Part shown: in pieces, positions 3,824 to 40,514 of the stretch
How the letters are laid out: the number at the start of each line of letters is the position of its first letter
Position numbering within the stretch: position 1 is the first letter of the stretch
Origin: Candidatus Undinarchaeales archaeon
GTDB taxonomy: Archaea; SpSt-1190; JASMDC01
NCBI GenBank assembly: GCA_030753015.1
Contig: JASMDC010000030.1
Coordinates: 1 to 43,225 of the forward strand
Length of the DNA stretch: 43,225 bases
Direction: 5' to 3'
Notes under the pieces: generated by a model
What the model saw: only the letters and a program-made list of their open reading frames with translations
Told to the model about the DNA's origin: nothing
The model's database searches: none
Position numbers and translations under genes: made by a program

Positions 3824-3845
3824 TGGCTGACACTCGGAATGTAGA

Positions 3846-3858
3846 GATTATAAATGTT
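3846..3858. promoter_or_regulatory. Archaeal TATA box in the divergent rnfC/apbE intergenic region
   Basis: TTATAAAT (minus strand ATTTATAA) about 25 nt upstream of the rnfC ATG; AT island in GC-rich DNA. Confidence 0.65.
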
Positions 3859-3910
3859 ATGCCCTCCCCTCGGACGCCCCGTTAAAGCGGAGCAGAGCGA
3901 GGTCCGGACA

Positions 3911-6610: not shown

Positions 6611-7197
6611 CTTACGCCATGGTGACCGTTCCCCAACGCGTTCTTACGCTCACGGCCACACCGTCAGTTGCATCTTCATCAAGGGGGGCCGATGTCGATA
6701 AGGATAATACGCCCTTTTATGAGTCCTTGAAAGGATGCAGTTCGATCGCGGAGATCTTCGAGCTCGTAAAGACAAGGGTCTCGTTGCACATCGGCAGGGA
6801 GCGGACTAACCTCATGGTCGGCCTCTCTGACCTTGGAACCGCTCCGGGTGGGTTCATCGGTGCATATTGTGCGATCGGGGGCAACATCATCGTCATCAAC
6901 AAGCGGATCCTCGTCAAGGTAAAGGCTGAACGCCCCGAGCTCTACAACGAATATCTGTTCTTCATCCTTCTTCATGAGTACATCCATGGACTCGGTTTCT
7001 CCAATGAAAGGGAGACCGAGGAGCTCACCTTGTCCATAGCCAAGACCCTGGGCAATGAGACCATCATCGAGCTTGCCACGGACATGAGCCGTTTCTTCCC
7101 GGACATCGTTTTCTCACCCGTAGGTATGAGGCCCGAGCAGCGGTACATCGAGTTCGAGCATGGAATAGACCAGAAGGATACCACCTATATCCGGTGA
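6595..7197 (+). CDS. Putative zinc metallopeptidase-like protein (HEXXH), start uncertain
   Basis: ILLHEYIHGLGF..ERETE zincin motif preceded by GFIGAY...IIVIN. Confidence 0.65.
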   Translation: MKVYKPYAMVTVPQRVLTLTATPSVASSSRGADVDKDNTPFYESLKGCSSIAEIFELVKTRVSLHIGRERTNLMVGLSDLGTAPGGFIGAYCAIGGNIIVINKRILVKVKAERPELYNEYLFFILLHEYIHGLGFSNERETEELTLSIAKTLGNETIIELATDMSRFFPDIVFSPVGMRPEQRYIEFEHGIDQKDTTYIR

Positions 7198-7272
7198 CCT
7201 TATCCCTATTCATTTTATGTAACTACTCCCCAGTAGTAAACTATATATACCTGAAGCACCTACAATATCCCG

Positions 7273-7887: not shown

Positions 7888-9219
7888 CTATTTATCGAGC
7901 ACCTGCTCCGGATCGTCCATCATCTCGATGAACCAGAGCACGGCAGGAAGGTTGTTATCGACCACATCGTCGATGTCCTCCTCGTCGGGATTGAACTGCG
8001 TGAAGGTGTTGCCCCATCCGCCTCCGCCTTCCAGCTCGACGGTGTAGGCGAGCATCCCCTTGGAGTCCGCCCAGTCGGTGTACGTACCGCTGGCCAGGGC
8101 CGTCCGGCCGCCGTGCATCACGTCGTACGGGCGCTCCATGAGCTCGCGCATCCCATTGCCGATGGCGCGGTAAAGCTCCTCACGCTCGCCATCCTCGGTG
8201 GTGTAGTCGGGGGCGTACTGGTACTCGCCACCATAGGAATGAAACGCCAGCGTCCCCTTGAAATCATGCTCGGCCACGAACTCGGCCATGGCCGTGGTCT
8301 CCTGCTCGCTCATGGCCTCGGGACCACGGTAGGTCTGGTGCCAGTAATTGCCGCTGGCACCGGGCTTGCCCCAGGCCTCCGAGAAGTTACGGTTGAGGTC
8401 CACACCATGGAGCGAGGACGACCTTTCGGCCCAGTTCCCCTCCTCGACGAGCTCGCTGTTATCGCGGGCGTTCTTGCGGTGGTCCGAGTCACCGTACCGC
8501 CGCACCTGCTCGGCCACGATCATCCCGCCATCGGTATTGAAGCTCGGGATTATCCAGGTGTCCCGGCTGTCCACCAACTTTGTGATATAGGCGTCCTTGC
8601 CGTAGCCGTCGACCATCGTCTTGGCCACGTCGAGGGGCACCTCCACCGCGATGGCCTCCCGGGCATGGAACTGGCCGACAAGTAGCACCTCGGTCCGCGC
8701 CTCGCGGTCCTTCACGCGAGCGTCGCTGCCGATGCGTATGGCGTAGATCGGATTACCGAGTCCACTCTTCCCGATGACCTCGACATGAGCGAGGTCCGGT
8801 GCCTTCTTCTCGAGAGCGTACAGTTCCTCGGCGACCTCCTCGGGGACGTGGTACTTGCCCAGACCACCGTCCCTGAGAGGCGAATCGGTGGGTATACGCT
8901 GCCAGGAACGGACATACTGTCCCTGCTCGACATACTTATCAAGGGCATCGTCACGGTCATAAGCGCCCCCTTCAGCGGGGAGCACCATCTCCTTGGGAAG
9001 CCGTATCTCGTAGTCGCCGAGGTCGATCCGGTAGTCGTCTGCCAGCTCGTGCTCAAGCAGCTCTTGGTGGGCGGGAGGCGTCGTTGCCGGATGGTCCGCC
9101 GCGTACGCTATTGGTGCGATAGCGGTGATGGCCGTGGCACCGAGGAGGGCATAGGTGGTGGCACGCTTCACCACACGGGCGAGCACACCCTCACCATCGC
9201 CGTCCCCGGCTTCTTCCAC
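7888..9219 (-). CDS. Secreted M14-family zinc carboxypeptidase (carboxypeptidase T-like)
   Basis: HAREA (His/Glu Zn ligands), GVDLNRNF, YRGP..SEQE, FHSYG, YTVEL; signal peptide ending AYA; leader motif IDLGDYEIRLP. Confidence 0.9.
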   Translation of the reverse strand: MEEAGDGDGEGVLARVVKRATTYALLGATAITAIAPIAYAADHPATTPPAHQELLEHELADDYRIDLGDYEIRLPKEMVLPAEGGAYDRDDALDKYVEQGQYVRSWQRIPTDSPLRDGGLGKYHVPEEVAEELYALEKKAPDLAHVEVIGKSGLGNPIYAIRIGSDARVKDREARTEVLLVGQFHAREAIAVEVPLDVAKTMVDGYGKDAYITKLVDSRDTWIIPSFNTDGGMIVAEQVRRYGDSDHRKNARDNSELVEEGNWAERSSSLHGVDLNRNFSEAWGKPGASGNYWHQTYRGPEAMSEQETTAMAEFVAEHDFKGTLAFHSYGGEYQYAPDYTTEDGEREELYRAIGNGMRELMERPYDVMHGGRTALASGTYTDWADSKGMLAYTVELEGGGGWGNTFTQFNPDEEDIDDVVDNNLPAVLWFIEMMDDPEQVLDK

Positions 9220-13746: not shown

Positions 13747-13770
13747 CAAGTTGGCCTCGGCCCCGTACGG

Positions 13771-24320: not shown

Positions 24321-25625
24321 TCACACTTCCTTGAACCTTGCTGAGAAAGAAGCGTCCTCGCCCGAGATATTGGTGACCGCCAGCCAGAGCGTCCCGTCCT
24401 CGTGTATATCGATGTCCGTTGCTCCACCGTTGAGCGTGTCCGCCACCAGAGTAGGTCCCGATGACCCCACCATAGCAGCGCGCAACCGGAGCCCGTCGGA
24501 CGAACCGCTCTCAACCCTCACTGTGCGCCCCGCGGTGACCTGGGCCTTCATGAACGACATCCCTCCGCGCCCGGACACATCGGCATAGCAGGTCAGTCCA
24601 TCGGAGAGCTCGGTCGCCTTCACCTCACCTATGTCTAGCCGCTCGAACGCGTACATCCCCCCCTCGAACGAGGTGTCGTTCACCGCGATGGCCAGGCCCA
24701 GGTCGGCGAACACGGTGTCGAGGTCGAGGGAGGGGTTCAGACCCCCGAGCCTCGCGTCCAGCGAGTCCTTCCCGTGCAGTGGATCGGCCGTGAGGTCCTT
24801 GATGAAGCTGTCACCGAACCTCTCCCAGAGGTAGTCGCCGAAGAGCATGTAGAGGCCGTAGTGCCCCCGACCGATCTTGTCCGGGATAAGAGCGTGGGAG
24901 GGGTCGCGCAACCAGGTATCGACCCAGCGTTCGTCCGCACCGTAGCCGGTGAGCACCATCGCCACCTCGCTCATGGCCTCGTTGAGCCAGTTCTCCTCAT
25001 CCCGATCGTGGCCCCAATGGATGAGGTGCTGAAGCTCGTGGGCCTGTACGGAGAGCATGTAATCGGAGTCGGGAGCGTAATGGAGCGTGTTGATGTGTAG
25101 GGTCTCATGTCGGTTGGACACAGGGACGTCGAGCTGGTCCTCGACCTTGAAGTAGCCGTCGAAGCTGTGCCCGCGGTACCCCTCCATCTCGTACAGGAAG
25201 AGGTAGACCTTCGGATCGTTGTCGAACTCGTCCGGTGGGTCGCCGAACAGGCCCGTGACCTGGTCGTAGAGACCGTGCTCGGGATCGGAAGGTGTCCCTT
25301 CGTCCCAGGCCCTGATTAGGTTGGCCACCGTCCCCTCGTCAACGGAGTGGCCCCAGGCCGCGTCCTCGACGACGACGTACACGTTCCTCCCCTCACCGCG
25401 CACACTGGCCGCGATCTGCTCGTCCCGGGGGGGCATCACCGACAGGTCCCACACCCACCACATGTCGGTTGCGGGGCCGTACGGTCCCGGGACCGTGACA
25501 TCGTGGTCCGCATAGGCCGGAGGGTACTGGCAGAGGGGTCGGTGGGCCGTTGAGTATACCGGGGCTTGGTCCTCGAGCTCAGGAATGTATTCCGCGACCT
25601 CTTCGACGGGACCTGCGTCTTCCAT
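24321..25625 (-). CDS. Zinc metalloprotease (M30/hyicolysin-like gluzincin)
   Basis: FGDPPDEFDNDPKVYL, DGYF, AHELQHLIH, WLNEAMSE. Start ATG 25625 or GTG 25637 (GTGA overlap); no signal peptide visible. Confidence 0.82.
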   Translation of the reverse strand: MEDAGPVEEVAEYIPELEDQAPVYSTAHRPLCQYPPAYADHDVTVPGPYGPATDMWWVWDLSVMPPRDEQIAASVRGEGRNVYVVVEDAAWGHSVDEGTVANLIRAWDEGTPSDPEHGLYDQVTGLFGDPPDEFDNDPKVYLFLYEMEGYRGHSFDGYFKVEDQLDVPVSNRHETLHINTLHYAPDSDYMLSVQAHELQHLIHWGHDRDEENWLNEAMSEVAMVLTGYGADERWVDTWLRDPSHALIPDKIGRGHYGLYMLFGDYLWERFGDSFIKDLTADPLHGKDSLDARLGGLNPSLDLDTVFADLGLAIAVNDTSFEGGMYAFERLDIGEVKATELSDGLTCYADVSGRGGMSFMKAQVTAGRTVRVESGSSDGLRLRAAMVGSSGPTLVADTLNGGATDIDIHEDGTLWLAVTNISGEDASFSARFKEV

Positions 25626-25633
25626 CGGGCCGC

Positions 25634-27181
25634 TCACTCTTTGCCCTGCTGCGACTCCAGGTAGATCTGGAGCCACAGAGGGAGCTCGAAGGCCTCCTCG
25701 ATGGTGGGGTTCCGCTTCTGCATCAGCTCGTCCCACGACGTGTCCTCTGCGAACCCGGTGGCCTCGTACAGCTGCTTGTAATGATCGTACTCCCGCTGCA
25801 CGCTGGGGACGTAGATGTGGAGCCCCGTTGCAGTGCCATGGGACTGGGCGTTGTGCTGCTCGGCAACGACCACCTGTCCGATGGACTTTATCACCTTGTT
25901 GGCAGCATCGCGCACTGCGGGTTCGTACTTCTCGTTGGCCGCGAGCCGCTCGGCCAGGTCACCCAGGTCCACGAGGGGCTCCGGGAAACCGAGCAAAGGA
26001 TTGGTGCCGAAGTGAAGGCTTGCGTCGTTGGCCTTGTTGAACTCCTCCATGGGGACCTTCGATCCGAGCAGAGCATCGGCCAATCCATCCACGGCCTCGG
26101 CCACCTTGGGCATCTTGGCCACCTCGGTGGCAGAGAGTGTCCTGAGGTTCTGCTGGTCGTTCTCGGCCTCCTTGACGATGAGGTAGCTCATCAGCTTGGG
26201 CGAGAGCTCGGGGCGCGGGCCGTCCTTGAAGGCCTTGGAGTACTTCTCCATGACCACAAGGGCACGGTTGCCCATGATGCCCTCGTAGGGCCAGCCCTCG
26301 GCGCCCTCATTCTCCTCGCTGGCCACCAGGAAGTCGGTGACGCTCCGTACTTGGTAGGCGCCCTCGGCCGATGCCATGAGGCACGCGTCGTACCCGAGCA
26401 CGTCGATCTTGACGCCCGTCTTCTGCTGGACCTTGCCCAGAGCCTCCTGGACCTGTGCCCAAGTCATGGAATCGGTACCCGCGGAATCATCGATAATCGA
26501 GCCGGTCCAGCCCATACCGTGGTCGGAGATGACGAGCATGTAGTTCTTCGCAGGGAAGTTCTGGACGCCCCACTCCACGAAGTCCTGGAGGTTCGCAGGA
26601 TCGGCCATGTCGATCTGACCTAGCTCACCCAGAACGGGGGAGTTGAGCTCGCCCTTAGTACCATCCTTCTGGAGGTGATAGCGCCGGGCACCGGTCCACG
26701 CTCGCTTGCCCATGTCGATCTTGCCGTCTGCCTTCTCGCCGCGGTCGAGCTGGACGATCACGTCCGCGTTGTCGGTGGAGCCTATCTTCTCCATATCGTC
26801 CACATCGGCGACCTGATAGGCCTCAAGATTGTTGTCCGCGGCGGAGTAGACGAGGATGGTCCACTCCTTGCCTTCGGCCTGGTCGTCCTGGGCAGCGTAG
26901 TTGAGCGGGATGGACGACGGGAGAGTGACCTGATAGTCACCCATATCGATGACGTTGCCTTGTTTGGCCTGTTCGGTCTCGATGACGTACGCCGGCTGAG
27001 GGTCCGTTCCGGGAGGCGGGAGCGTGTTGGGGAGCATGCCGCCACCGATGCCGACAATAGCACCACCGATGGTGGCTACAAGTCCAAGCCCTGCGGCGGC
27101 GTAGGTCGCCACCTGCTTGGTAGTAAGCCCCTCTTCCTTCTCGTTCGCTTCCGGTTCAGGTTCCTGCTCGACGTACATCAT
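25634..27181 (-). CDS. Clostripain-family (C11) cysteine peptidase with conserved leader, copy 3
   Basis: KEWTILVYSAADNNLE, VQLDR, FPAKNYMLVISDHG.GW (catalytic His), GYDACLM (catalytic Cys), ASEENE..EGWPY. Confidence 0.92.
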   Translation of the reverse strand: MMYVEQEPEPEANEKEEGLTTKQVATYAAAGLGLVATIGGAIVGIGGGMLPNTLPPPGTDPQPAYVIETEQAKQGNVIDMGDYQVTLPSSIPLNYAAQDDQAEGKEWTILVYSAADNNLEAYQVADVDDMEKIGSTDNADVIVQLDRGEKADGKIDMGKRAWTGARRYHLQKDGTKGELNSPVLGELGQIDMADPANLQDFVEWGVQNFPAKNYMLVISDHGMGWTGSIIDDSAGTDSMTWAQVQEALGKVQQKTGVKIDVLGYDACLMASAEGAYQVRSVTDFLVASEENEGAEGWPYEGIMGNRALVVMEKYSKAFKDGPRPELSPKLMSYLIVKEAENDQQNLRTLSATEVAKMPKVAEAVDGLADALLGSKVPMEEFNKANDASLHFGTNPLLGFPEPLVDLGDLAERLAANEKYEPAVRDAANKVIKSIGQVVVAEQHNAQSHGTATGLHIYVPSVQREYDHYKQLYEATGFAEDTSWDELMQKRNPTIEEAFELPLWLQIYLESQQGKE

Positions 27182-27189
27182 TAACCCTC

Positions 27190-28689
27190 CTACTGGCCTC
27201 CCTTATTCTGATTCGCCCGCTCCTGGAGGAACTCGTCCCACTGGGTGTCCTCTGCGAAGTCGAGCTCACCGTACTTATCACCGTCGAAGGAGTCCTGGCC
27301 CTCTCCAGGTGGACCGTTGAAGGGCACGTATATGTGCAGCCCGTGGGCGTTGGGATGGCTGGTCTCGTTGTGCTGCTCGGCGACGACAACCTGGTCGACG
27401 GCCTCGATGACCTTTGCCGCGGCCTCGCGCACATCAGCGCCGTAGGCACCATTGGCAGAGACCTTCTCGGCCAGCTCTACTGCGTCCACGAGCGGCTCCT
27501 CAAACCACCACTGCCTCCCAAAGTGGAAGCTCTCCTCGGCGATCTTGTTGAACTCGCTGATGGGCACCTTGGACCCTCGCAGCGCCTCGGCGAATCCGTC
27601 CATGGCCTCGGCGACCTTGGGCATCTTCTCCACCTCGACGGCAGAGAGAGTAGGGAGGTTCCGCTGGTCGTTCTCGGCCTCCTTGACGATGAGGAAGCTC
27701 ATGAGCTTCGGAGTGAGCTCTGGGCGCTTACCGTCCTTGAAGGCCGTGGAGAACTTCTCCATGACCACCAGGGCCCGGTTGCCCATGATACCCTCGTAGG
27801 GCCAGCCCTCGGCACCCTCCAGCTCCTGGCTCGCCACCAGGAAGTCGGTGACGCTCCGTACCTGGTAGGCGCCCTCGGCCGACGCCATGAGGCAGGCGTC
27901 GTACCCGAGCACGTCGATCTTCACACCGGTGCGCTGCTGGACCTTGCCCAGTGCTTCCTGGACCTCGACCCAGGTCATCTCGTGGTCCCCGGAGGAGTCG
28001 TCCCCGATGGCCCCGGTCCATCCGGCGCCGTGGTCCGAGATGATGAGCATGTAGTTATCGGCGGGGTAGTTGTTCACACCCCACTCGAGGAAGTCCGCGA
28101 GCACGTCGGGATCGGCCATGTTGACCTGCCCGAGCTCGCCCATCATGGGGGAGTTGAGCTTCCCTTTCTCGGCGTCCTTCTGGAGGTGGTAGCGCCGGGC
28201 GCCGGTCCAGGCCCTCTCTCCCGAGTCGACCTGGCCCTCGGCGACCGTGCCGCGGTCGACTTGGATCACGACGTCCACGTACTTGTCAGAACCGACCGTC
28301 TCCATGTCGTCGTTGTCGGCCATGAGATACGGCTCGAGGTTGTTGTCGGCGGCCGAGTAGACGAGGACGGTCCACTCCTTGCCCTGCGTACGGGCGTCCT
28401 GGTCCGCATAGGTCAGGGGGAGGGACGAGGGGAGGGTTACCTTGTAGTCGCCCATGTCGATGACGTTACCCTGAGTGCTCTGTTCGGTCTCGGTCACATA
28501 GGCCGGACGCGGGGTCGTGTCCGGGGGCGGCTGGAACGGCGGAAGGATGTTGATCGCACCGCCGATGGCGGCTACGAGCCCAAGGCCCGCTGCGGTGTAG
28601 GCCGCGACCTGCTTGAACGTAAGCCCGTCCTCTTCTCGTTCCGGCGCTTCATCGTGCTCGTTCTCATTCTCGATATACATCATGATCAC
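27190..28689 (-). CDS. Clostripain-family (C11) cysteine peptidase with conserved leader, copy 2
   Basis: KEWTVLVYSAADNNLE, YPADNYMLIISDHGAGW, GYDACLM, GLHIYVP; GGTGA SD. Confidence 0.92.
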   Translation of the reverse strand: MIMMYIENENEHDEAPEREEDGLTFKQVAAYTAAGLGLVAAIGGAINILPPFQPPPDTTPRPAYVTETEQSTQGNVIDMGDYKVTLPSSLPLTYADQDARTQGKEWTVLVYSAADNNLEPYLMADNDDMETVGSDKYVDVVIQVDRGTVAEGQVDSGERAWTGARRYHLQKDAEKGKLNSPMMGELGQVNMADPDVLADFLEWGVNNYPADNYMLIISDHGAGWTGAIGDDSSGDHEMTWVEVQEALGKVQQRTGVKIDVLGYDACLMASAEGAYQVRSVTDFLVASQELEGAEGWPYEGIMGNRALVVMEKFSTAFKDGKRPELTPKLMSFLIVKEAENDQRNLPTLSAVEVEKMPKVAEAMDGFAEALRGSKVPISEFNKIAEESFHFGRQWWFEEPLVDAVELAEKVSANGAYGADVREAAAKVIEAVDQVVVAEQHNETSHPNAHGLHIYVPFNGPPGEGQDSFDGDKYGELDFAEDTQWDEFLQERANQNKGGQ

Positions 28690-28699
28690 CTGTTGAACA

Positions 28700-30175
28700 T
28701 CACGGACCCGACGGGGTCTGCTTCATCTTCTCTGCCCGATCCTTGAGCCACTCGTCCCACTGGGTGTCCTCGGTGAACTCGAGCTGCTCGTACGCCTCGC
28801 CGTCGTAGGACCCTGCCCACCAGCTCGACGGGACGTAGATGTGCAGCCCGTGGGAGCCGGGATGGGTCGAGTTGTGGTGCTCGGCCACAATCACCTGGTC
28901 CACGGCCTCGATGACCTTGTTGGCGGCGAGCTTCACGTCCTTGCCATACTGGTCGTTTGCGGCGAGGTTCGTGGCCAGGTCGACCACGTCCACCAGGGGC
29001 GAGCCCCAGCCGTAGTCCTGGCTGTTGCCCTCAATGGTATTGAACTCGGTGACAGGGACCTCGGACGCACGCAGGGCGACGGCGAGCCCGTTCACGGCTG
29101 ATGCCACCTTGGGCATCTTCTCGAGCTCTGTTGAGGAGAGCGTGTCGAAAGTGGCGGTATCATTGGCGCCTTCCTTGACGATGAGGTAGGAGTAGAGCTT
29201 GGGCGTGAGCGCGGGGCGGTCGGTGTCCTTGAAGGTGCGGTTGAACTTCTCCATGACGTCCAGTGCCCGCTGGCTGATGATACCCTCGAAGGGCCAGCCC
29301 TCGACGCCCTCCAGCTCCTCGCTGGCCACCAGGAACCCGGCCGCGTCGCGGACCTGATAGGCGACCTCGGTCGATCCCATGAGGCAGGCATCGAATCCGA
29401 GGATGTCGATCTGTGCACCAGTGCGCTCCTTGACCCGCTCGAGCGCCTGGTCGAGCTCAGGCGTGGACATCTGTCCGGCGTGGTGTGAGCTGTCGTCGAT
29501 GAAGCCCTCCCAGCCCGAGCCGTGGTCGGCGATGATGAGCATGTAGTGCTTGGCGGGGAAGTTCTTGACGGTGAACTCCACGAACTCCGCCAGTGTCTCG
29601 GGAGCGGCCATGTCCACCTGTCCGAGCTCCGCTAGCACCGGTGAGTTGTAGTTGACCGGGTCGGTATCCTTCTGGATGTGGTAGCGCCGGGCACCGGTCC
29701 AGTCGCCGCCCTGGGGCGTGTCGGCGGTGTATCCGCGGTCCACCTGGACCACGACGTCCATGTAGTCGTTGGATCCCAGCTTCTCCATGTCGTTGATGTC
29801 GGTGAGCTGGTCGTTCTCGAGGTTGTTGTCGGAGGCGGAGTAGATCATGACGGTCCATTCCTTGGCCTCAGCGGGAACCCGGGCGTCCTCGCCGTAAACG
29901 AGAGGGATGTCCTTGGGCAGAGTGACCTGGTAGTCGCCCATGTCGATGGTGCCGCCCTTGACGGCGTCCTGCACTTCCGTGACATAGGCGGGCCGGTAGG
30001 GTCCAGTCCCCGACGCGGGGGTCGCGTCCATGGGTCCCACGGCCGTGCCGATGGCGCCACCTACGGCGGCTGCGAGGCCGAGGCCCAGTGCGGCGTACAC
30101 GCCCACCTTCTTGAGCGTGAGCCCTTCCTTCTCGTTCTCTATTTCCGTTTCGTACTCCGTCTCCATTATCATCAT
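28700..30175 (-). CDS. Clostripain-family (C11) cysteine peptidase with conserved leader, copy 1
   Basis: KEWTVMIYSASDNNLE, FPAKHYMLIIADHGSGW, GFDACLMG, GLHIYVP. Confidence 0.92.
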   Translation of the reverse strand: MMIMETEYETEIENEKEGLTLKKVGVYAALGLGLAAAVGGAIGTAVGPMDATPASGTGPYRPAYVTEVQDAVKGGTIDMGDYQVTLPKDIPLVYGEDARVPAEAKEWTVMIYSASDNNLENDQLTDINDMEKLGSNDYMDVVVQVDRGYTADTPQGGDWTGARRYHIQKDTDPVNYNSPVLAELGQVDMAAPETLAEFVEFTVKNFPAKHYMLIIADHGSGWEGFIDDSSHHAGQMSTPELDQALERVKERTGAQIDILGFDACLMGSTEVAYQVRDAAGFLVASEELEGVEGWPFEGIISQRALDVMEKFNRTFKDTDRPALTPKLYSYLIVKEGANDTATFDTLSSTELEKMPKVASAVNGLAVALRASEVPVTEFNTIEGNSQDYGWGSPLVDVVDLATNLAANDQYGKDVKLAANKVIEAVDQVIVAEHHNSTHPGSHGLHIYVPSSWWAGSYDGEAYEQLEFTEDTQWDEWLKDRAEKMKQTPSGP

Positions 30176-30203
30176 CTCCCGTCCCTGTCATATGATCCGG
30201 TAA

Positions 30204-31622
30204 TCATTGCTCCCCTTCCACTCCGTCGGGATTATCCGTCCCTGTGGGCGGTGGAGCGGAACCGGGATCGGACTGCAGAGCGCGGTCCAACTGGATAATG
30301 CCGTGGCCGTAATACTGATCCCAGCCGCTGCTGCCGCGGTCCAGCGCGGTGGTCTCAAGCGCGGTGCGCACCCGTTCTGGCGTGTTGAAATCGCTGGAAT
30401 AGCCGATCAGCACGGCGGCCGCCCCTGCCACGTGCGGCGCCGCCTGGGAGGTGCCGCTATTGTAGATGTAGGTGTCGTCAAGGCCGGTGGAGCCGATGTC
30501 CGATCCGGGCGCGGCCAGGTCTACAAAATCGCCGTAAGTGGAGAAACGAGAGCGGTTGTCGCTGGAGTCCGTAGACGCCACTGCAATCGTGTTCTCGTAG
30601 GCAGCCGGGTAGTCGATGGTGTTGCTGCCGGAGTTGCCGGCGGCAGTCACCACCGTCACGCCGTGCTCCACCGCATAATTGACGGCGTCTTCCAACGCCC
30701 TGGAGTTAAAAGGGGCTCCCAAGCTCAGATTAATGACGTCCGCACCGTTATCCGTGGCGAAGATAATGCCGTCGACGATGGCGGAGTACCTGCCGGCGCC
30801 GTTCGAACCCAGCACCTTGACCGGCATAATGCGCGCCCCCCACGAGACGCCGGCGACGCCCTCCCCGTTGTTGCTGACCGCCGCTGCAATTCCCGCCACG
30901 TGCGTACCGTGCCCCTGATCGTCCTGCGGGTTGTCGTCCCGGTTGACAAAGTCGTATCCAGGCACGATCTTGGCTGCCAGGTCAGGGTGGTCGAGGTCAA
31001 CCCCGGTGTCCAACACGGCGATTATGACCGAGTTCGATCCGGTACTCAGGTCCCACGCCTGCGGAGCCCGGATGCGCTGCGGGCCGTACTGCAAAGACCA
31101 ATATGTATCGTTGGGCGTTATGTCGAAAGCATGGGCCACGTAGTTCAACTCGGCATATTCCACCAGCCCTGAGTTGTTCAGCGCATCCAACAGTTTCTTG
31201 GCGTCACCATCGCCGGCGCGCAGCAGCTGAACGTCGAGGGAGGAGATCTCGCCCTCGATCCGCGCATCCAGGCCATCGATGAGCGCATCCGAGTCGCTCT
31301 TGTACAAATCTCTACTGAACTTCACCAGCACTTCGTCCGGCACGTACCCCTCGCTGTACACCATGGGGGTGCCCTCGGGAAGGGTGACCTGGTAGTCGCC
31401 CATGTCGATGACGTTCCCCTGGCTGCTGTGCTCGATCTCGGTCAGATAGGCCGGCCGCGGGGTCGTGCCCGGCGGGGGCGGGATGATACTTATGGCCCCG
31501 CCAATGGCGGCCACAATGCCCAGGCCCAGGGCGGCGTACCCGCCGACCTTCTTGAGCGTGAGCCCTTCCTTCTCATTCTCCAAGTCCGTTTCGTACTCCG
31601 TCACCATGATCATCACTCCCAC
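30204..31622 (-). CDS. S8 subtilase (thermitase-like) with the same conserved leader
   Basis: Triad IAVLDTG / QGHGTHVAG / SGTSQAAPHVAG, oxyanion AAGN, prodomain YVPDEVLVKF...VEYAELNY; exact start among 31622/31613/31607 uncertain. Confidence 0.95.
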   Translation of the reverse strand: MGVMIMVTEYETDLENEKEGLTLKKVGGYAALGLGIVAAIGGAISIIPPPPGTTPRPAYLTEIEHSSQGNVIDMGDYQVTLPEGTPMVYSEGYVPDEVLVKFSRDLYKSDSDALIDGLDARIEGEISSLDVQLLRAGDGDAKKLLDALNNSGLVEYAELNYVAHAFDITPNDTYWSLQYGPQRIRAPQAWDLSTGSNSVIIAVLDTGVDLDHPDLAAKIVPGYDFVNRDDNPQDDQGHGTHVAGIAAAVSNNGEGVAGVSWGARIMPVKVLGSNGAGRYSAIVDGIIFATDNGADVINLSLGAPFNSRALEDAVNYAVEHGVTVVTAAGNSGSNTIDYPAAYENTIAVASTDSSDNRSRFSTYGDFVDLAAPGSDIGSTGLDDTYIYNSGTSQAAPHVAGAAAVLIGYSSDFNTPERVRTALETTALDRGSSGWDQYYGHGIIQLDRALQSDPGSAPPPTGTDNPDGVEGEQ

Positions 31623-32671
31623 TCCACCCAGTCGGGATTGTAGGTGCCCAGGGGCAGGTCGTCCCCGAACATCGATTGTGGTGAATACCCTAGTTGCGAA
31701 TAAGCGACATCCCGGGGGATGAGCAGATCGCGAACGTTGTTATCGGTGAGATAGGCCTTACCGTCGATGATCGTCTCGGTCCAGGCGTGACCTCCGCCCT
31801 TCATCGTCCCGAGCACCACCACCGAATCGTAACCCTTGGCCTCGAGCAGCGAGTTGGAGGCGAGTGCGTAGTCCTCGCAGTCCCCCCTGCCGAGGGAAGT
31901 GAGGAAGTGCTCCGGGTTCTGCCAGTAGTCGGTGTGACCGAGATGCTCGGCGTCGAAGAAGTACTTCCCCATGAGCGGTTTGCCGTCGGCGAACCGCATG
32001 AACTTGATACCGGATATGGTGTTCTCGCCGATATTTATTGAGCTGGGAAGGTCGCGGACCTCGAGGTTGTTGGCGTAGCCCTGGACGATCTCACTGTCCG
32101 GTGTGATGTAGGACGAGGGATCGTTGGGCATGTAGAAGCCCCGCTGTTCGCCGATCTCCTGGTGCCTGAGCGAGGGGAAGCCGTCGGGGATGCCATCGCT
32201 GTTCGCGTCAGCGTTATCGGGGTGGAGGTCGTAGGCGTCAGCGAGCCCGTCACCGTCCCGGTCGGGGAGCATGAAGTCGGGGTCCTTGCCGTCGATGATA
32301 CCGTCAGCGTCCACGTCAGGATTGGACCAATCCCAGTCCCGGCCGTCGAGGATGCCGTCCCCGTCGATGTCGGGATTACCGGGGTGAGGGTCGATGGAGT
32401 CGTAGAGGTGGTCGCCGTCGGCGTCCGCCATGGCCTGTTCGGGAGAGAGCGTGGGAACGCTGTCGTCGCCCAGCACACGGGTCTTGGGGGGCCCGGGCTC
32501 GGCCTCCTTGCCGAGCAGTGCACCAAGGACGAGCCCACCGGTGATGGTGAGGCCGACCGCTATGAATCCCTTGGCCACAGATTCGGCGTTGAGGTCCTCG
32601 GTGACCGTGTAGCCGTCGGCCGCCGTGGCGGTCCCGGCCTCATCGGTCTCGAGGTCGATGTCCATCGCCAT
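31613..32671 (-). CDS. Membrane-anchored transglutaminase-like cysteine protease with Asp-rich Ca-binding repeats
   Basis: TM helix; D.DGDG..D repeats; DYWQNP..FL...GDCEDYAL, GGHAWTE, downstream D (Cys-His-Asp triad). Confidence 0.82.
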   Translation of the reverse strand: MAMDIDLETDEAGTATAADGYTVTEDLNAESVAKGFIAVGLTITGGLVLGALLGKEAEPGPPKTRVLGDDSVPTLSPEQAMADADGDHLYDSIDPHPGNPDIDGDGILDGRDWDWSNPDVDADGIIDGKDPDFMLPDRDGDGLADAYDLHPDNADANSDGIPDGFPSLRHQEIGEQRGFYMPNDPSSYITPDSEIVQGYANNLEVRDLPSSINIGENTISGIKFMRFADGKPLMGKYFFDAEHLGHTDYWQNPEHFLTSLGRGDCEDYALASNSLLEAKGYDSVVVLGTMKGGGHAWTETIIDGKAYLTDNNVRDLLIPRDVAYSQLGYSPQSMFGDDLPLGTYNPDWVEWE

Positions 32672-33651
32672 CAGTTCCCCTCCCGTACTTCGAGCTCATA
32701 TCCACTCTCGTCGATCTCGTACACCTGGACGCCGTACACGTCCTCGAAGGAGGGGATGATGTGCATGTCCTTGCCCTGGCCTCGCATGTGGAGCGACGCC
32801 TCGAAGTCCTCGATGACCTTGGACGGATCGTTCTGGATATCCTGGTAGAACTGCTGGGCGGCTTTCTTGAGCTCGCCCTTGAAGTAGGGGACACGGTCGC
32901 GTTCGAATGTCTTGACCGCCTCCTCGCCCTCGAAGGCAGCGAGCGTGGCCTCGTCCTTGTACTGCTTCTGGACGGGTTCGAGGTACTCGTTCAGTGTCGC
33001 CTGGACCACCTGGGTGCCCACATATTCGAGCGTTGTCTTCAACGCGCCCTCACGCGAGGAGAACTGCATCCAAATGGCGTCCTTCTCCTGCTCGGAGAGC
33101 GGGCCGTTACCTCCGTTGATCCTGGAGGTCTCGATGGTCTCGATAAGCTTGTGGTAATCGGTCCGGGCATCGAACTGCGCCAGGTTCTCGACGCTGTAGG
33201 ACACCTGGCCGTGGATGTACGCTTCCTTGGCGGCGTCGGCCTTCTGACCGGTGTAGGTTGCGAGCTGCCCGACGGGGATGTCGATGTCGACCGTCTGACG
33301 TTCAAGGGACACCTCCTCGTAGCTGGAGAATGGGACTGGGAGACGAAGGACGAACTTGCTTCCATCGGTCTCGTTCTCGATGTAGCGGGTGCCACCTTCG
33401 AAGTCGAGGATGCCCCGTTCATCGAGCTGGACGGACTCGTGGATGATGGCGCCGGTGTTGGGAGGGACGATACCGACCGTGGACACCATACCGAAACCGA
33501 CCCCGAGGGAGGCGAGACCGAGGCCGATGTACTTGCCGACGGTCATGGCCTGCGCGCCCAGCGGCAGGTCCGAGAACTTAGTTACTTCCTCCTCACGGTT
33601 GTCCGGTTGTAGGTCTTCCTCTTTGAGCTTCTCGTCCTCAAGGTTCCTCAT
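32671..33651 (-). CDS. Hypothetical membrane-anchored protein, first gene of the protease operon
   Basis: Acidic N-terminus, KYIGLGLASLGVGFGMV hydrophobic segment, helical C-terminal part; TGATG overlap with the next gene. Confidence 0.8.
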   Translation of the reverse strand: MRNLEDEKLKEEDLQPDNREEEVTKFSDLPLGAQAMTVGKYIGLGLASLGVGFGMVSTVGIVPPNTGAIIHESVQLDERGILDFEGGTRYIENETDGSKFVLRLPVPFSSYEEVSLERQTVDIDIPVGQLATYTGQKADAAKEAYIHGQVSYSVENLAQFDARTDYHKLIETIETSRINGGNGPLSEQEKDAIWMQFSSREGALKTTLEYVGTQVVQATLNEYLEPVQKQYKDEATLAAFEGEEAVKTFERDRVPYFKGELKKAAQQFYQDIQNDPSKVIEDFEASLHMRGQGKDMHIIPSFEDVYGVQVYEIDESGYELEVREGN

Positions 33652-33749
33652 TTCGGTTACCCCCTAGTTTCATACGTCCGTCCCCGTAGCCACGGCTGCG
33701 GCATGCCATACTGTACCGTGGCGTCCGGACCTCATTCGCCACCCTTCCG

Positions 33750-33781
33750 ACCTTATATAGGTTGTTCCTCCATATATCGGA
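33750..33781 (-). promoter_or_regulatory. Putative TATA promoter of the protease operon
   Basis: CCTTATATAGG (near-palindromic) and CATATATC about 100-130 nt upstream of ATG 33651. Confidence 0.45.
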
Positions 33782-33870
33782 AAATTCCGCGAGAAACGCA
33801 TCACTACGGCTTAGTTACAACTCCGGAGTACGGTGGAAAAAGACACGTTATGACGGATGCGGCGCAGGGT

Positions 33871-34662
33871 CTAGACAGGCTTCCCGAGGGAGTCCCAGTA
33901 AGTGTCGAAGATCCCGCAGAACAGGGAGACGAAGTCTGCGTTCTTTGAGAATAGCACGATGTCCTCGCCCTTGCTAATGGTGAGGCTGTCACGCGTTGCC
34001 CGCAGGAGCATGGCCATCTCGGACTTGTCGACGATCACGATGCGTGGGAGCGGGGCGTCGAGCATTCGGACATCGGCGAACCGCTTCGCCCGCTCGAGCT
34101 GCTCCGGATGTGCGATGTCGAACACGAGCATCCTGATGGGCTTCCCCTCGTCGCGGAGGCGCTGGTGGACATTGCTCTTCGACTCATAGAGCAGCATCTT
34201 CCCCAGACCCGCCTCGTTGACGGTGATGCGCACCTCGTTCTCGGTGGTGTTCATCATCTTGTCGATACGCAAGTATTTCTTGGACCTGCCATGGATGAAC
34301 CAGAACTCGGGGATGCTGGCCGACTCATCGCTCTTTGCGGCGAAGGACGCGAGCTGGGCGCGAGCGGTCTCGTGGCTCTGCTCCAGCGCATCTATCATCG
34401 AGCGCGTGTGCTCCTTGAGCGCGATGTCGGGCTCCACGGCGATGTAGCGGATGGGCTTAATGTCCTGTTTGTAGATGAACCCGCGCTTCTCGAGCATGTC
34501 GAGCGCCTCGTAGATGCGGGCCTTGGGGATCTTGAGCATGTCGTATAGGTCAGACACGGTGGCGCTCTCCCTCATCAGGAGATGGGGGTAGACGAGCACC
34601 TCGTACCGTCCAAGGCCTAGGTTGGTCATGGCGTTCAATAAGCGCTCACTTATCTTGAGCAT
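33871..34662 (-). CDS. TrmB-family transcriptional regulator
   Basis: LGLGRYEVLVY..L, IPKARIYEAL..LEKRGFI, P.RYIAVEP (TrmB wHTH); C-terminal IVIVDKSE effector domain. Confidence 0.9.
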   Translation of the reverse strand: MLKISERLLNAMTNLGLGRYEVLVYPHLLMRESATVSDLYDMLKIPKARIYEALDMLEKRGFIYKQDIKPIRYIAVEPDIALKEHTRSMIDALEQSHETARAQLASFAAKSDESASIPEFWFIHGRSKKYLRIDKMMNTTENEVRITVNEAGLGKMLLYESKSNVHQRLRDEGKPIRMLVFDIAHPEQLERAKRFADVRMLDAPLPRIVIVDKSEMAMLLRATRDSLTISKGEDIVLFSKNADFVSLFCGIFDTYWDSLGKPV

Positions 34663-34720: not shown

Positions 34721-35668
34721 CTACTGCTGGGCCAGCATACGTTCGACGTACGAGCGGACGTGCGGGTTGTTGTTCACGGATCGCTCGACGAGATCAGGAT
34801 TCCGCTCTGAGAACTCCTGGATTATATCGCCGTGCATCCCCAGGCCTTCCAGGCCCACTGACTGGCGCACGCTCTCCTCGAACTCGGCTCCGGCCACGAT
34901 GAGGGAGAACTGGAAGTCCGAGATGTCCACGTCCACCTTGGACAGGCCTTTAGGCGTGAGCTTGGCGACCCGCATGGAGTTCAGCCGCTTGTGTCCTTCG
35001 CCCGTATCGAGCTTCTCCACGAACTCGCCCACGTTGACACCCTCGGGCGCATAGTCCTGCCTGAGCAGCGCCTTGAACGAGATGAGGGACGTCGCGTCGG
35101 CGAAGGTCTTCTCAAGTCCGAGCTCCTCGGCGTACGTGTCGAGCAGAGCTATGGCCTTCCCGCCTATGTGGCTCCCCTGGTGCTCCTTCTTGATGGCGAA
35201 CCGCGACATCTCACCGGAGAGGTCGTCGCTGTGGACGTTGATCGCGAAAGAGCCGACCATCTCGGCGTACTCACCGGGAGCGGTCTCCTTCTCCACGACG
35301 AACCAGAGGTCGAAATTGGGGACTCGCCCACCGCCCTTGGTGAGGTAGTCCGAACCATAGAAGGACATAGTCTTGTGGTCCTTCTGGAACCTCTCGGCCT
35401 CGAAGATCGACTTGTCGCAGTGCTCCTGGTTGGAGTACACGTTGTTGTAGACATCGGCCAGACCGTCCGCATCGTCGGCCTCCCAGAGGCGCATCCGGTA
35501 GGTCTCGCCCAGATCGTTGGAGAACGTATGGGCCTCCAGTGAGGCCATGTTGACCAGGATCGTCTCTTGAGGGGACGCTATGTACAGGGTGTGGGATTCC
35601 TCCACGGAGGAATCATACGGTTCAAGAACGACCGCTTCAACAGCCCCAGGAACGAAATACATGTCCAT
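34721..35668 (-). CDS. GNAT-fold acetyltransferase-like protein
   Basis: GEMSRFAIKKEHQGSHIG acetyl-CoA motif A. Likely start ATG 35668/35662 after GGGGGG; the track's 36037 start overlaps the opposite-strand gene. Confidence 0.7.
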   Translation of the reverse strand: MDMYFVPGAVEAVVLEPYDSSVEESHTLYIASPQETILVNMASLEAHTFSNDLGETYRMRLWEADDADGLADVYNNVYSNQEHCDKSIFEAERFQKDHKTMSFYGSDYLTKGGGRVPNFDLWFVVEKETAPGEYAEMVGSFAINVHSDDLSGEMSRFAIKKEHQGSHIGGKAIALLDTYAEELGLEKTFADATSLISFKALLRQDYAPEGVNVGEFVEKLDTGEGHKRLNSMRVAKLTPKGLSKVDVDISDFQFSLIVAGAEFEESVRQSVGLEGLGMHGDIIQEFSERNPDLVERSVNNNPHVRSYVERMLAQQ

Positions 35669-35726
35669 CCAGCCCCCCACAGGGAACGCCCCTGCGATGG
35701 TAACACATCCGGCGGCCCCGTGGCCG

Positions 35727-35780
35727 GTATATAAGCCTTTTGATTTTCCTCCGGTCACCGGTGGAACGAGCTTTATAAAC
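35727..35780. promoter_or_regulatory. Divergent TATA boxes
   Basis: GTATATAAG (minus CTTATATAC) at about 35727-35735 and CTTTATAAA at 35771-35779, the latter about 28 nt upstream of ATG 35807. Confidence 0.6.
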
Positions 35781-35806
35781 AGGGTCATATTGGACCGATA
35801 CAGGAC

Positions 35807-36436
35807 ATGGAAGGGGACGATATCCTGGGGACGTGTATCGACGGTGTCTACACACGCCGCTCCTCGGAGCTCGACGGGTACGCAGAGGGTATTTTCCTTG
35901 GTGACTACATGGCCGATCTTGCCCGGAAGCTCGGTGAGGAGGGGAAAAAGCAGCTTCCAGACCTCCTCGATGGAAAGATCGACGAAGACGAGGCCTATGA
36001 ACGCACTATCTCGTCCTTCATCGGTCTGTACGAGCACTGTGGAGAAACGATACTAGAGCAGATGGTCTCATACATCAAGCCCCATGTCCACAATCCGGCG
36101 GTCAAGGCCTTCGCTCTGGCCGAGCTCACGTTCAACACCTACGTCATCCGCACCTACGAGCGGGCCCTTGACGCCCAGCCCGAAGCGGCCTGCGACGACC
36201 TCTTCCTTGACGACGACATCTACTGCGCGATCATGTCCATCGAGGGGGACATCGATACCTACGAATCACTTGTTGAGCAACGGGACCAGGCCTCGCGTGG
36301 ATTCATCGACATGGTTGTCGAGGAGGCCGGGTACTTGCGAGGACGCATCATCAAGGTGCCGCTCACCACCATCCTCGTCGACCGCCCCGGCGAGCGTGAA
36401 GAGGATCTCGTTCGGCGGATGCGGTCCCCCGCCTAG
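35807..36436 (+). CDS. Hypothetical acidic helical protein
   Basis: Host-like codon usage, TATA box at the expected spacing, convergent 4-nt overlap with the DUF523 gene. Confidence 0.75.
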   Translation: MEGDDILGTCIDGVYTRRSSELDGYAEGIFLGDYMADLARKLGEEGKKQLPDLLDGKIDEDEAYERTISSFIGLYEHCGETILEQMVSYIKPHVHNPAVKAFALAELTFNTYVIRTYERALDAQPEAACDDLFLDDDIYCAIMSIEGDIDTYESLVEQRDQASRGFIDMVVEEAGYLRGRIIKVPLTTILVDRPGEREEDLVRRMRSPA

Positions 36437-39251: not shown

Positions 39252-40514
39252 TCAGGCCGTTGCCCAGTCCGCTTCGTAGTCGCCGTACTCTACCTCGTCG
39301 TTGAACGCATAGAGCGGATTCCAGTCGGTGTGTGACTCGTAGAAGGCGTCCCGCTCAACGAGACTGTCGTAGTCCACCACGTATCGAGTGCCGTCGATGT
39401 CCGTCTCCAGCCAGGCATGACCGCCCTCGTTGTTGGGCTGGGTGAACCCCACGACGACCATGGACGGATTCCCCCGGGCGATGAGGATGGACGAGGCGGT
39501 CAGGGCGTAGTCCTCGCAGTCACCCACCCTGCCGTTGGCCAGGTAGTTATCGGGATTGATCCAGTAGTCGGACTCGTTGAACTGGTCGATGTCACGCTCG
39601 TAGCGCTGGAACAGGTCGGTGCCGTCGGCGAGCCGGAGCTCGTCGTTCTCGATCTCCAGCCGGTTCGCATACCCCAGGACCACCGGATCGTCGGGATCCA
39701 CGTACTCGTGGGCGTCACGGGCATGCAGGAGCAGGCCCGAGGACGAGGAGCTGTAGTCGCGGAGCGCAGGGCTCCCGTCCAGGTTCCCGTCACCGTCATG
39801 GTCCGCGTCCCGCGGGTAGAGGTCGAAACCGTCCATGAGGCCGTCGCCGTCGCTGTCGGTGCTGTCCGGGTTCGGGTCCTCCCCGTCGATGAGAAGGTCG
39901 TTGTCGCAGTCGGGGTTGTATATGCATGCGTTCGTTTCGTCACCATCGAGCAGGCCGTCGCCGTCCACGTCAGGGTTCTCCAGGTCGGGATCCAGACCAT
40001 CGAGCAGACCGTCCGCGTCATGGTCCGCCTCGGAGATATAGGGATCAGCACCATCGAGCAGGCCGTCGCCGTCCACGTCAGGGTTCTCCATGTCGGGATC
40101 CTTTCCATCGAGGAGGCCGTCATTATCGTAATCGGACCGCGTGGGGTATGGATCGGCCATGTCACCGATGCCGTCACCGTCGGTGTCCGGGTTCCCGCTG
40201 TCAGGGTCGAGGCCGTCGAGGAGACCATCTCCGTCGGCGTCCGGATTCAGAGCCGCCGGGTCCGATCCGTCCATGATGCCATCGCCGTCCGAGTCGGGGT
40301 TCAGGAGCTTGGAGCCGCCTAGGAGCTCGCTCATGTTGGATGCCCCGTCCTTGTCGAAGTCGGCGGTGGCGAGGTAGCCCGCTCCCAGCACTCCACCCAT
40401 CACCGCGCCGAAGGTCAGATGTCTCCTGTCCAGATCATTGGTACCGCTGTAGCCCTCCACCAGTTCGGACCTTCGTTCCCCGTCCGACTCCAGTTCGATC
40501 TCGCGCTTGTACAT
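39252..40514 (-). CDS. Transglutaminase-like cysteine protease with a long Asp-rich Ca-binding (TSP3-like) repeat region; paralogue of 31613..32671
   Basis: About 10 PD.DGDGL.DG.D repeats; DYWINP...GDCEDYAL, GGHAWLE, VVD triad. Confidence 0.83.
   Translation of the reverse strand: MYKREIELESDGERRSELVEGYSGTNDLDRRHLTFGAVMGGVLGAGYLATADFDKDGASNMSELLGGSKLLNPDSDGDGIMDGSDPAALNPDADGDGLLDGLDPDSGNPDTDGDGIGDMADPYPTRSDYDNDGLLDGKDPDMENPDVDGDGLLDGADPYISEADHDADGLLDGLDPDLENPDVDGDGLLDGDETNACIYNPDCDNDLLIDGEDPNPDSTDSDGDGLMDGFDLYPRDADHDGDGNLDGSPALRDYSSSSSGLLLHARDAHEYVDPDDPVVLGYANRLEIENDELRLADGTDLFQRYERDIDQFNESDYWINPDNYLANGRVGDCEDYALTASSILIARGNPSMVVVGFTQPNNEGGHAWLETDIDGTRYVVDYDSLVERDAFYESHTDWNPLYAFNDEVEYGDYEADWATA
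39941..40101. repeat. Near-exact intragenic direct repeat (53 bp, 108-bp period)
   Basis: caccatcgagcaggccgtcgccgtccacgtcagggttctcca(g/t)gtcgggatcc at 39941 and 40049, encoding DPD[LM]ENPDVDGDGLLDG. Confidence 0.85.

Follow-up and report, generated by a model that had tools for sequence, protein, structure and literature searches.

The window considered here, the complete 43,225-nucleotide (nt) contig JASMDC010000030.1 from an assembly of a Candidatus Undinarchaeales archaeon, carries on its minus strand a compact operon of seven genes (g1–g7, positions 24321-33651), which codes for an orphan membrane protein followed by six predicted peptidases of four families. This operon can probably, if by no means certainly, be seen as a digestive protease battery tethered to the cell surface, with swappable catalytic heads displayed at the outer face of the membrane. 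Two observations carry this view. Four of the enzymes, together with a carboxypeptidase encoded elsewhere in the window, begin with a common N-terminal module (hereafter the A-type module) that sequence comparisons establish as lineage-specific and as lying behind at least four predicted hydrolase folds (S8, C11, M14 and alpha/beta hydrolase). In the corresponding locus of a second species of the genus (hereafter the sister species), the same slot that here bears an S8 head bears a C11 head, and the alignments establish that heads have evidently been recombined behind the anchor.

In mechanistic terms, six of the products start with an acidic, presumably cytoplasmic tail, a Lys/Arg, one membrane helix rich in Gly and a stalk rich in Pro, which would together constitute an uncleaved signal-anchor of N-in/C-out orientation, with the catalytic heads held outside the cell on the Pro-rich stalk and presumably retained at the surface. 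The heads would be complementary, comprising three Arg/Lys-type C11 enzymes, a broad-specificity S8 pro-enzyme, a LapG-like Cys protease and an M30-like metalloendopeptidase, to which the M14 carboxypeptidase of the same island, equipped with the same anchor, may add. External protein would then be cut to peptides and amino acids beside the cell's own transporters, in what may be a nutritional role, and digestion at the cell's own surface would limit diffusive loss in seawater.

Layout of the operon

The seven co-directional open reading frames (ORFs) fill 24321-33651 of the minus strand exactly. From the upstream end they encode the orphan membrane protein g1 (32671..33651; 326 amino acids, aa); a BTLCP/LapG-like Cys protease of the transglutaminase fold (g2, 31613..32671; 352 aa); an S8 subtilase (g3, 30204..31622; 472 aa from a GTG at 31622 or 469 aa from an ATG at 31613); three paralogous C11 clostripains, each with the A-type module (g4, 28700..30175, 491 aa; g5, 27190..28689, 499 aa; g6, 25634..27181, 515 aa); and a gluzincin metallopeptidase (g7, 24321..25625; 434 aa from its ATG). 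The g1/g2 junction is a 1-nt overlap, as is g2/g3 if the ATG at 31613 is used (10 nt from the GTG at 31622), and the remaining gaps measure 28 nt (g3/g4), 10 nt (g4/g5), 8 nt (g5/g6) and 8 nt (g6/g7). The longest frame of g7 would overlap g6 by ~100 nt; the ATG start is favored because close relatives of g7 are 432-434 aa long. The run of ORFs is not a product of chance, since the arrangement recurs in the second species of the genus.

An earlier account of this DNA, made from the letters and their translations (the sequence-only reading), had described eight genes that overlap or lie less than 30 nt apart, with GGAG/GGTGA Shine-Dalgarno sites. The spacing agrees with that description, and purine-rich sites of the GGAG-, GGGGGT- or GGTGAT-type do stand 5' of the operon starts; the genes number seven, no intergenic space being big enough for another. 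The same account gave seven of the eight products an acidic N-terminus followed by a hydrophobic helix. With membrane helices called by a hydropathy window throughout, such a start is found in six of the seven, the acidic tails having a net charge of -3 to -8 and being followed by a single hydrophobic helix, and g7 has no hydrophobic segment. Membrane tethering, as then proposed, is thereby supported for these six predicted membrane proteins. The resemblance noticed among the N-terminal segments proved to be real, with a conserved and lineage-specific module behind it, and the assignment to four protease families with intact catalytic residues is upheld, at the level of sequence, by the motifs and family matches given below.

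The organism and the locus in its sister species

The window is a whole contig of a 3.85-Mb assembly (117 contigs, 60% GC, 98.9% complete, 5% contamination), and in tetranucleotide composition this contig lies inside the single main cloud of the assembly's contigs. Archaeal markers are in place (ribosomal protein S28e present, S20p absent), and the genome has four TBP genes and no match to sigma-70 region 2. An SSU rRNA was not found in the assembly, which contains no assembled rRNA. A run index places the stretch in marine and seawater metagenomes; of the runs in it, X5, X12, X18 and X20 were compared with the stretch, and X9-X11, X13-X17 and X19 do not count here as evidence of habitat. The sole close relative in the genome collection is the same-genus genome of 3.6 Mb that represents the sister species; at 3.85 and 3.6 Mb the two genomes compare with 0.6-1.2 Mb in the class-level relatives searched.

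The sister locus keeps a GNAT-like gene, a TrmB-family regulator, g1 and g2 at its head, and g7 after the array. Between g2 and g7 an S8 gene is absent and there are five C11 genes, the start of one of them being displaced; after g7 come a 260-aa unknown protein, a module-bearing alpha/beta hydrolase, a sixth C11 enzyme that also has the module, and then a giant M23 protein. In the second C11 gene of that locus (sister ~7080-7200), the start of the module is in another frame than the rest, through either a frameshift or an assembly error. The operon proteins are 81-96% identical to those of the sister species, and across the eight orthologue pairs compared, identity ranges from 81-98%, the divergence at synonymous sites (dS) from 0.30-0.58 and the ratio of nonsynonymous to synonymous divergence (dN/dS) from 0.03-0.19. 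The operon genes are under purifying selection.

A lineage-specific N-terminal module with exchangeable heads

The A-type module spans ~75-90 residues and is carried by g3, g4, g5, g6 and the M14 carboxypeptidase. In g5, taken as an example, alignments place it at residues 1-87 (28429..28689, minus strand); the further copies, on the same strand, occupy 29915-30175 in g4, 26918-27181 in g6, 31377-31622 in g3 and 8995-9219 in the M14 gene. Its parts follow a constant order, namely an acidic tail, K/R, a Gly-rich transmembrane (TM) helix (YAAxGLGLxAAIGGAI), a Pro-rich linker, a PAY motif and an IDMGDYxVTLP strand, with G22, P62, A63, Y82, L86 and P87 invariant in 10 copies. A hidden Markov model (HMM) of the module finds exactly five ORFs among the ~15,000 of the genome, all of them on the window contig (E 5.5e-45 for g3, 2.3e-40 for g4, 8.2e-44 for g5, 3.3e-42 for g6 and 1.7e-27 for M14). 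Against 1.84 billion representative sequences, the profile yields eight matches at E<=1e-3, six of which come from its own lineage (an S8, two C11, an M14, an alpha/beta hydrolase and a 51-aa fragment). The remaining two are weak repeat matches in giant proteins. A word-based search for the module returned three proteins.

Three comparisons bear on how the module relates to what follows it. The module of the S8 enzyme is 61-71% identical to those of the C11 enzymes, from whose heads its own head is unrelated in kind. A C11 enzyme occupies the slot after g2 in the sister species, and its tail start nearly equals that of the subtilase here. Within the sister array itself, two C11 genes (S_c1 and S_c3) have heads that are 98% identical and modules that are 46% identical. 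Together these point to recombination between heads and modules.

A different N-terminal segment, the B-type module, precedes the head of g2 and reads MYDLDLE...DGY...EDL, followed by one helix. Across the A-type and B-type tails, the conserved motifs are MY(D/I)(L/E).. at the start and then DGY...EDL or EGLT.K.V ahead of the helix. A local HMM places the B-type motif on 22 ORFs; in a genome search it occurs on 26 ORFs here and on 29 in the sister species, with no match in any of 59 further archaeal genomes searched. Pfam has no family for it. Among the proteins with this motif are TSP3-repeat and FG-GAP-repeat proteins, i.e., proteins with surface-type domains, as well as four tandem repeat-protein paralogues; one example of a carrier elsewhere in the assembly lies at C29:219820-226200. 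Profile comparison by hhalign gives a probability of 2.8% for the A-type against the B-type module; for g1 and the A-type module the figure is 2.1%, and the aligned part there is confined to the start of the helix. A pre-helix stretch of the form '(E/S)(D/G)L..K.VG.Y..LGL', which by eye seemed common to g1 and both module types, was set aside for want of statistical support.

The peptidase heads

In g3 the A-type module is followed by a fervidolysin-type prodomain (PF22148, Fervidolysin_NPro-like, 48.2 bits vs a cut-off of 21, residues 91-160) and then by a thermitase-like catalytic domain (Peptidase_S8, PF00082, 207 bits vs a cut-off of 21.8). The alignment to thermitase (1thm, E 4e-79) matches the D, H and S blocks as LDTGV, HGTHV and GTSQA. 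Peptidase_C11 (PF03415, cut-off 25.8) scores 145.6 bits in g4, 137.9 in g5 and 149.4 in g6, and these are the sole C11 matches in the whole genome. The paralogues g5 and g6 are 70% identical, and g4 and g5 58%. When g5 is compared with clostripain (9cip, E 3.1e-20), the His (DHG) and Cys (DACLM) blocks are aligned; in g4 these lie at 217 and 262, and H220 and C266 are invariant across the three paralogues. The paralogues also have an Asp at the second position ahead of the Cys (the D of DAC), a residue with a putative role in specificity for Arg/Lys at P1.

The assignment of g2 draws on Transglut_core at 26.1 bits (cut-off 23), with Peptidase_C93 at 22 bits, below its cut-off of 27, and the NCBIfam LapG model at 18.8 bits, below its cut-off of 320. 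A weak alignment (E 0.015-0.03) pairs its DYW..P..G.GDCEDYA block with the LapG structures 4u65 and 4fgo. Within the putative catalytic set, GDCEDY is located at 263, and the His (GGHAW, 293) and Asp (LTDNN, 308) are placed by motif only. The remainder of the protein consists of the N-terminal B-type module (E 1.8e-19), one TM helix and Asp-rich repeats of the Ca-binding type.

For g7, neither a Pfam family at E<=1 nor a PDB sequence match was found, and the NCBIfam model MXAN_6640_HExxH matches weakly, at 24.5 bits vs a cut-off of 140. Nevertheless, g7 can be placed among the gluzincins because H196, E197, H200, E216 and Y256 (HExxH plus a downstream Glu) are invariant in 55 aligned sequences, its AF2 model is confident (pLDDT 88.2), and the best Foldseek match of this model is the M30 peptidase lugdulysin (7bb8, E 5.3e-15, TM 0.56/0.67, 22% identity), followed by M1 aminopeptidases. 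By sequence g7 does not fall within M30, to which its likeness, as modeled, is structural only. The C-terminal beta-sandwich of the model matches collagen-binding/PPC-type domains of collagenases.

The start of g7 sets it apart from the other products: its first ~51 residues are acidic and disordered, and the hydropathy window registers no hydrophobic segment in it, hence no TM helix or signal peptide. Of 50 inspected N-termini of the g7 family, 40 begin with a strongly hydrophobic stretch, which in many of them is immediately followed by a Cys; the five from this lineage lack such a stretch. Lacking an anchor, g7 probably does not sit with the other products unless it is exported by another route. 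As to its affinities, g7 has its nearest relatives beyond the genus among bacterial proteins (50-57% identity), most with a lipoprotein-like signal and Asp/Thr-rich linkers and others with T9SS sorting-domain ends; in the archaeal copies the bacterial-type start is replaced by an acidic segment of ~50 residues without a helix.

The orphan head gene

The product of g1 starts with an acidic tail and a Gly-rich TM helix (~residues 38-62); behind these come a beta-rich stretch and long helices, and a beta hairpin forms the C-terminal end. The protein matches no Pfam or NCBIfam family, its homologues form one cluster among 5.8 billion clusters, and it is present in 2 of 41 genomes, those of this genus only; the two copies are 95.7% identical, with a dN/dS of 0.067. 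PDB sequence searches with g1 and g7 returned nothing relevant (an antibody match at E 0.99, i.e., at chance level, and an oxidoreductase at E 0.012). The AF2 model of g1, built from a 3-row alignment of near-identical rows, has a pLDDT of 39 and is too poor for a fold search.

The ESM Atlas places g1 nearest to SPFH/Band 7 clusters, by features at 0.89-0.90 and by structure at TM 0.39-0.45 to HflC, HflK and flotillin; one row is flagged there as one that 'meets the bar for a name', and by the tool's own figures scores of this size arise by chance in 4-10% of shuffled proteins. Profile search did not detect Band_7 (PF01145) in g1, and four other genes match it genome-wide. An hhalign comparison of g1 with these four proteins gave a probability of 0.6% (E 0.09), the non-significant match pairing residues 71-139, immediately behind the TM helix, with the beginning of the SPFH domain. 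In these model-based comparisons g1 thus weakly resembles the SPFH/HflC "protease modulator" proteins.

The upstream region and transcription

The ~190-nt region from a T5 run to the ATG of g1 is more conserved than synonymous sites, 33652-33841 of the window being near-identical to 3380-3566 of the sister despite ~0.3 substitutions per synonymous site. This conserved intergenic block contains a TATA-like element, CTATATAA (33753..33760, minus strand), which was located by an AT-rich scan ~100 nt 5' of the g1 ATG, is identical in the sister genome and is a candidate for the operon promoter. At ~60 nt upstream of it, between the element and the T5 run, stands a 10-bp palindrome, ACTCCGGAGT (33820..33829, no strand assigned). 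In the sister one of its arms has a single-base change, and the palindrome may be a regulator site. The regulator that adjoins the operon on its upstream side in both species is a TrmB-family protein of 263 aa (33871..34662, minus strand; PF01978, 62.3 bits), 98% identical to its sister copy; the sequence-only reading saw in it a possible controller of the operon. A terminator-like T5 run at 33837-33841 follows the trmB stop, and as far as these signals go, trmB is probably a transcription unit separate from the operon. Immediately 3' of the trmB stop codon, a stretch of ~35 nt has diverged between the species.

On its sense strand, the interior of the operon (24321-33651) nowhere has five or more T in a row. 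A bacterial-type scan gave no minus-strand terminator-like sites and sigma-70/terminator counts at or below shuffle expectation; because the genome is archaeal, such a scan is of little use. A riboswitch-like leader was considered and rejected, there being no Rfam family in 33500-34000 and the fold of 33645-33735 being no better than shuffles (z -0.32).

Contigs from RNA libraries (three seawater runs from two studies, nearly all at >=99% identity) cover parts of each of the seven genes and extend across two of the six junctions, each in two runs: g5/g6 at 26755-27498 (X12 record 1) and 26723-27221 (X18 record 10), and g2/g3 at 31328-31813 (X12 record 6) and 31377-31840 (X18 record 15). These contigs show presence in RNA libraries, which can hold DNA, and not one transcript, a strand or a level. 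Their cover is zero in the three runs over the TrmB bin 33926-34576 and also over most of the giant gene that follows g7, which is evidence neither for transcript ends nor for silence. Of the operon unit put forward by the sequence-only reading, the tight spacing and the lack of an internal T>=5 run stand, and the bridging is limited to the two junctions named; it may be inferred that a single transcript covers the seven genes.

The proposed tethered battery and its alternatives

A number of points weigh against a surface-tethered battery. The anchor helices rest on a hydropathy window, the tails carry a net negative charge, an uncommon property in an N-in anchor, and only one or two K/R beside the helix fit the positive-inside rule. 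Unlike most of its bacterial relatives with their hydrophobic, lipoprotein-like start, g7 is without an export signal and may therefore act inside the cell. The RNA contigs cannot prove one transcript, and RNA libraries can hold DNA. Finally, the combination of a conserved module and the conserved head gene g1 could imply more than passive anchoring.

This last point leads to the co-assembled complex or activation cascade that had been proposed from the sequence alone. Both are conjectural; g7 is anchorless, and the mid-operon gene set differs in the sister species. One form of complex, suggested by analogy, would have g1 act as a divergent SPFH oligomer of the HflK/C or stomatin kind, which gathers the anchored peptidases through their module into a microdomain or cage at the outer face. 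The Atlas neighbors of g1, the position of its non-significant alignment at the SPFH domain start, directly after the TM helix, and an order of parts (TM helix, beta-rich stretch, ~130 residues of long helices, hairpin) that in a low-confidence model fits the family outline are all consistent with such a role, as are the position of g1 as first gene of the operon here and in the sister, its strong conservation and the conservation of the A-type module beyond what a bare anchor needs. The Pfam Band_7 profile, however, finds four other genes and not g1, the hhalign probability is negligible, the Atlas scores are of a size reached by some shuffled proteins, and the variation in enzyme content between the species speaks against a fixed assembly. 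A complex prediction for g1 with the A-type module scored 0.00 vs a mark of 0.32, with the partner poorly folded, and was neutral in outcome. On balance, a g1-based scaffold seems rather unlikely. A broader version is unlikely too, in which the B-type and A-type modules would be tags of an address system peculiar to the genus and read by cell machinery, the A-type docking the heads into a g1 microdomain of divergent SPFH type and so producing an outward-facing, modular 'proteolytic raft', possibly fed by a bacterial-type SecA that the genus would have acquired. With mid-operon content that varies and heads that have been swapped, a toolbox of interchangeable, independent enzymes, diversified by gene turnover, fits better than a machine of fixed stoichiometry.

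A zymogen cascade, in which the enzymes would be inactive when made and would activate each other in order (e.g., the subtilase or a C11 enzyme cutting pro-segments), sits poorly with the fact that S8 and C11 enzymes usually self-activate, and a subtilase-dependent form could not be general because the sister operon is without a subtilase. The fervidolysin-type prodomain of g3 would fit it, and co-expression from one operon would suit it. C11 enzymes do need cleavage, as reflected in the PDB title 'Inactive Zymogen C11 Protease' (6mzo) and in the activation mechanism of globupain, so far as the accessible text of that report goes (PMC10315481). Such a cascade is nonetheless decidedly improbable here.

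The modules might instead be extended targeting signals, either processed in the class III/prepilin-like manner or handled by the bacterial-type SecA of the island. This full-length SecA of canonical type (11278-13749, minus strand) has four SecA Pfam domains and scores 1008.8 bits with NCBIfam PRK12904 (cut-off 814); it lies 10.6 kb from the operon, the sister species likewise has one near the island, and among 61 archaeal genomes searched strong matches occur only in this genome (one copy) and the sister (two). As precedents, GspB is directed to the accessory Sec system by an extended signal rich in Gly, and class III signals occur on sugar-binding proteins of Sulfolobus; the conserved motifs in the cytoplasmic tails, the Gly-rich helices and the spread of the B-type motif over dozens of ORFs in this genus and none of the other archaeal genomes searched would accord with a special signal. 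Against it, SecA is linked by neighborhood only, the K-x-G before the helix, judged by eye, misfits the usual prepilin cleavage pattern, and the comparison of A-type with B-type modules is non-significant. The genome was found to have one SecY gene, which leaves no accessory SecY2, and an accessory Sec system (SecA2 plus a second SecY) was not encountered beside the one canonical SecA and one SecY. Literature searches on this lineage or on SecA in archaea gave nothing specific. A dedicated export signal can thus be held to be quite doubtful.

The proteases might also belong to an offensive lytic island that, together with a wall hydrolase, attacks bacterial cells or debris and not dissolved protein. 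The next gene downstream (18467-24130, minus strand) encodes a giant Cys-rich secreted protein of 1887 aa with a classical signal peptide, a Peptidase_M23 domain (39.4 bits), a Pro/Thr linker and an SLT-like segment (21.1 bits, just under the cut-off of 21.3), which would make it a peptidoglycan-hydrolase-like protein in an archaeon. The sister likewise has this gene after its protease array (83% identity over the part compared), along with a second paralogue. Yet a spacer of ~190 nt with its own TATA-like boxes separates the giant gene from g7, the SLT score falls short, and a wall hydrolase activity would be read from domains, so that an offensive role looks a poor prospect. The scaffold, cascade, export-signal and offensive readings are not mutually exclusive.

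Parallels with known systems

C11-type peptidases have been reported from uncultured marine archaea, in Thermoprofundales/MBG-D and as globupain from an Archaeoglobales metagenome-assembled genome (PMC6461988; PMC10315481). In the accessible parts of these reports, the enzymes likewise have an intact His/Cys dyad and are read as tools for protein degradation (PMC6461988; PMC10315481). The present C11 genes differ in forming a tandem array within a mixed four-family operon and in sharing an A-type anchor common to all of them.

A second parallel concerns membrane proteins that accompany proteases. HflK/C encloses FtsH from the outer side of the membrane (PMC12048511), and a stomatin and its partner protease (PH1511/PH1510) share an operon (PMC4208085; PMC2636767), as described in the available portions of these papers. 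Like them, g1 is a single-pass and possibly SPFH-like protein beside predicted membrane-anchored proteases, known here from the genes. Unlike them, it goes undetected by Pfam Band_7, and its partners are secretory-type S8, C11 and metallopeptidase enzymes, with no FtsH or NfeD/STOPP match among the seven genes.

The g2 protein resembles LapG/BTLCP (C93), a periplasmic and Ca-dependent protease, in its DYW..P..G.GDCEDYA Cys block and its Asp-rich repeats of Ca-binding type; it differs in scoring below the C93/LapG cut-offs, in being apparently membrane-anchored by a B-type module, and in that no LapD/LapA-type partners were identified. The g7 protein shares with M30 hyicolysin and lugdulysin its modeled fold and the HExxH with a downstream Glu, and departs from them in an added C-terminal beta-sandwich and in that its nearest sequence relatives are uncharacterized bacterial lipoprotein-like or T9SS-tailed proteins. 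By analogy only, a parallel might be drawn with the cellulosome, in which a dockerin-type module is found on many enzymes and the scaffold gene heads the cluster: here too a short conserved module stands on unrelated heads encoded side by side, with a non-enzymatic gene first. Unlike the dockerin, the module here is N-terminal and includes a membrane helix, and a cohesin-like partner is not known.

Multi-protease loci and signal-anchored proteases are in themselves ordinary. The searches made turned up no other lineage-specific anchor module on four hydrolase folds, with swapping of heads and a conserved orphan gene at the head of the locus. A part in marine protein turnover is attributed to the extracellular peptidases that uncultured marine archaea produce, and for the question of how such enzymes stay near the cell the present locus offers a concrete and testable design. 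The A-type module might further serve as an easy marker for the surface proteome of the lineage. The host itself is unusual, in that a 3.8-Mb archaeal genome with a canonical SecA stands among class-level relatives of 0.6-1.2 Mb.

Neighboring genes in the island

The A-type module recurs ~15-16 kb downstream of the operon on the M14 zinc carboxypeptidase (7888..9219, minus strand; 443 aa; PF00246, 173.9 bits), in which the motifs FHAREA, FHSYG and VELEG were located and which also has an acidic tail and one hydrophobic helix. Upstream of the operon, a second BTLCP/transglutaminase-like protein of 420 aa with Asp-rich repeats (39252..40514, minus strand; Peptidase_C93 27.4 bits, Transglut_core 26.9 bits) matches the B-type module at E 5.7e-24 and 2.1e-17. 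A 609-aa protein (13822-15651, minus strand) has an N-terminus, ..GRGQVSLFGLIAIALVV.., that by eye is like an archaeal class III (pilin-type) signal; its gene is directly upstream of that for SecA here, and in the sister ~7.4 kb of other genes lie between the two. Upstream of trmB, the minus strand encodes a 438-aa protein (34721-36037) with a weak match to GNAT acetyltransferases and a counterpart in the sister. At the opposite end of the window, 263-4897 holds genes of an Rnf-type complex (RnfC-, RnfD-, FMN_bind- and Rnf-Nqr-type) together with ApbE.

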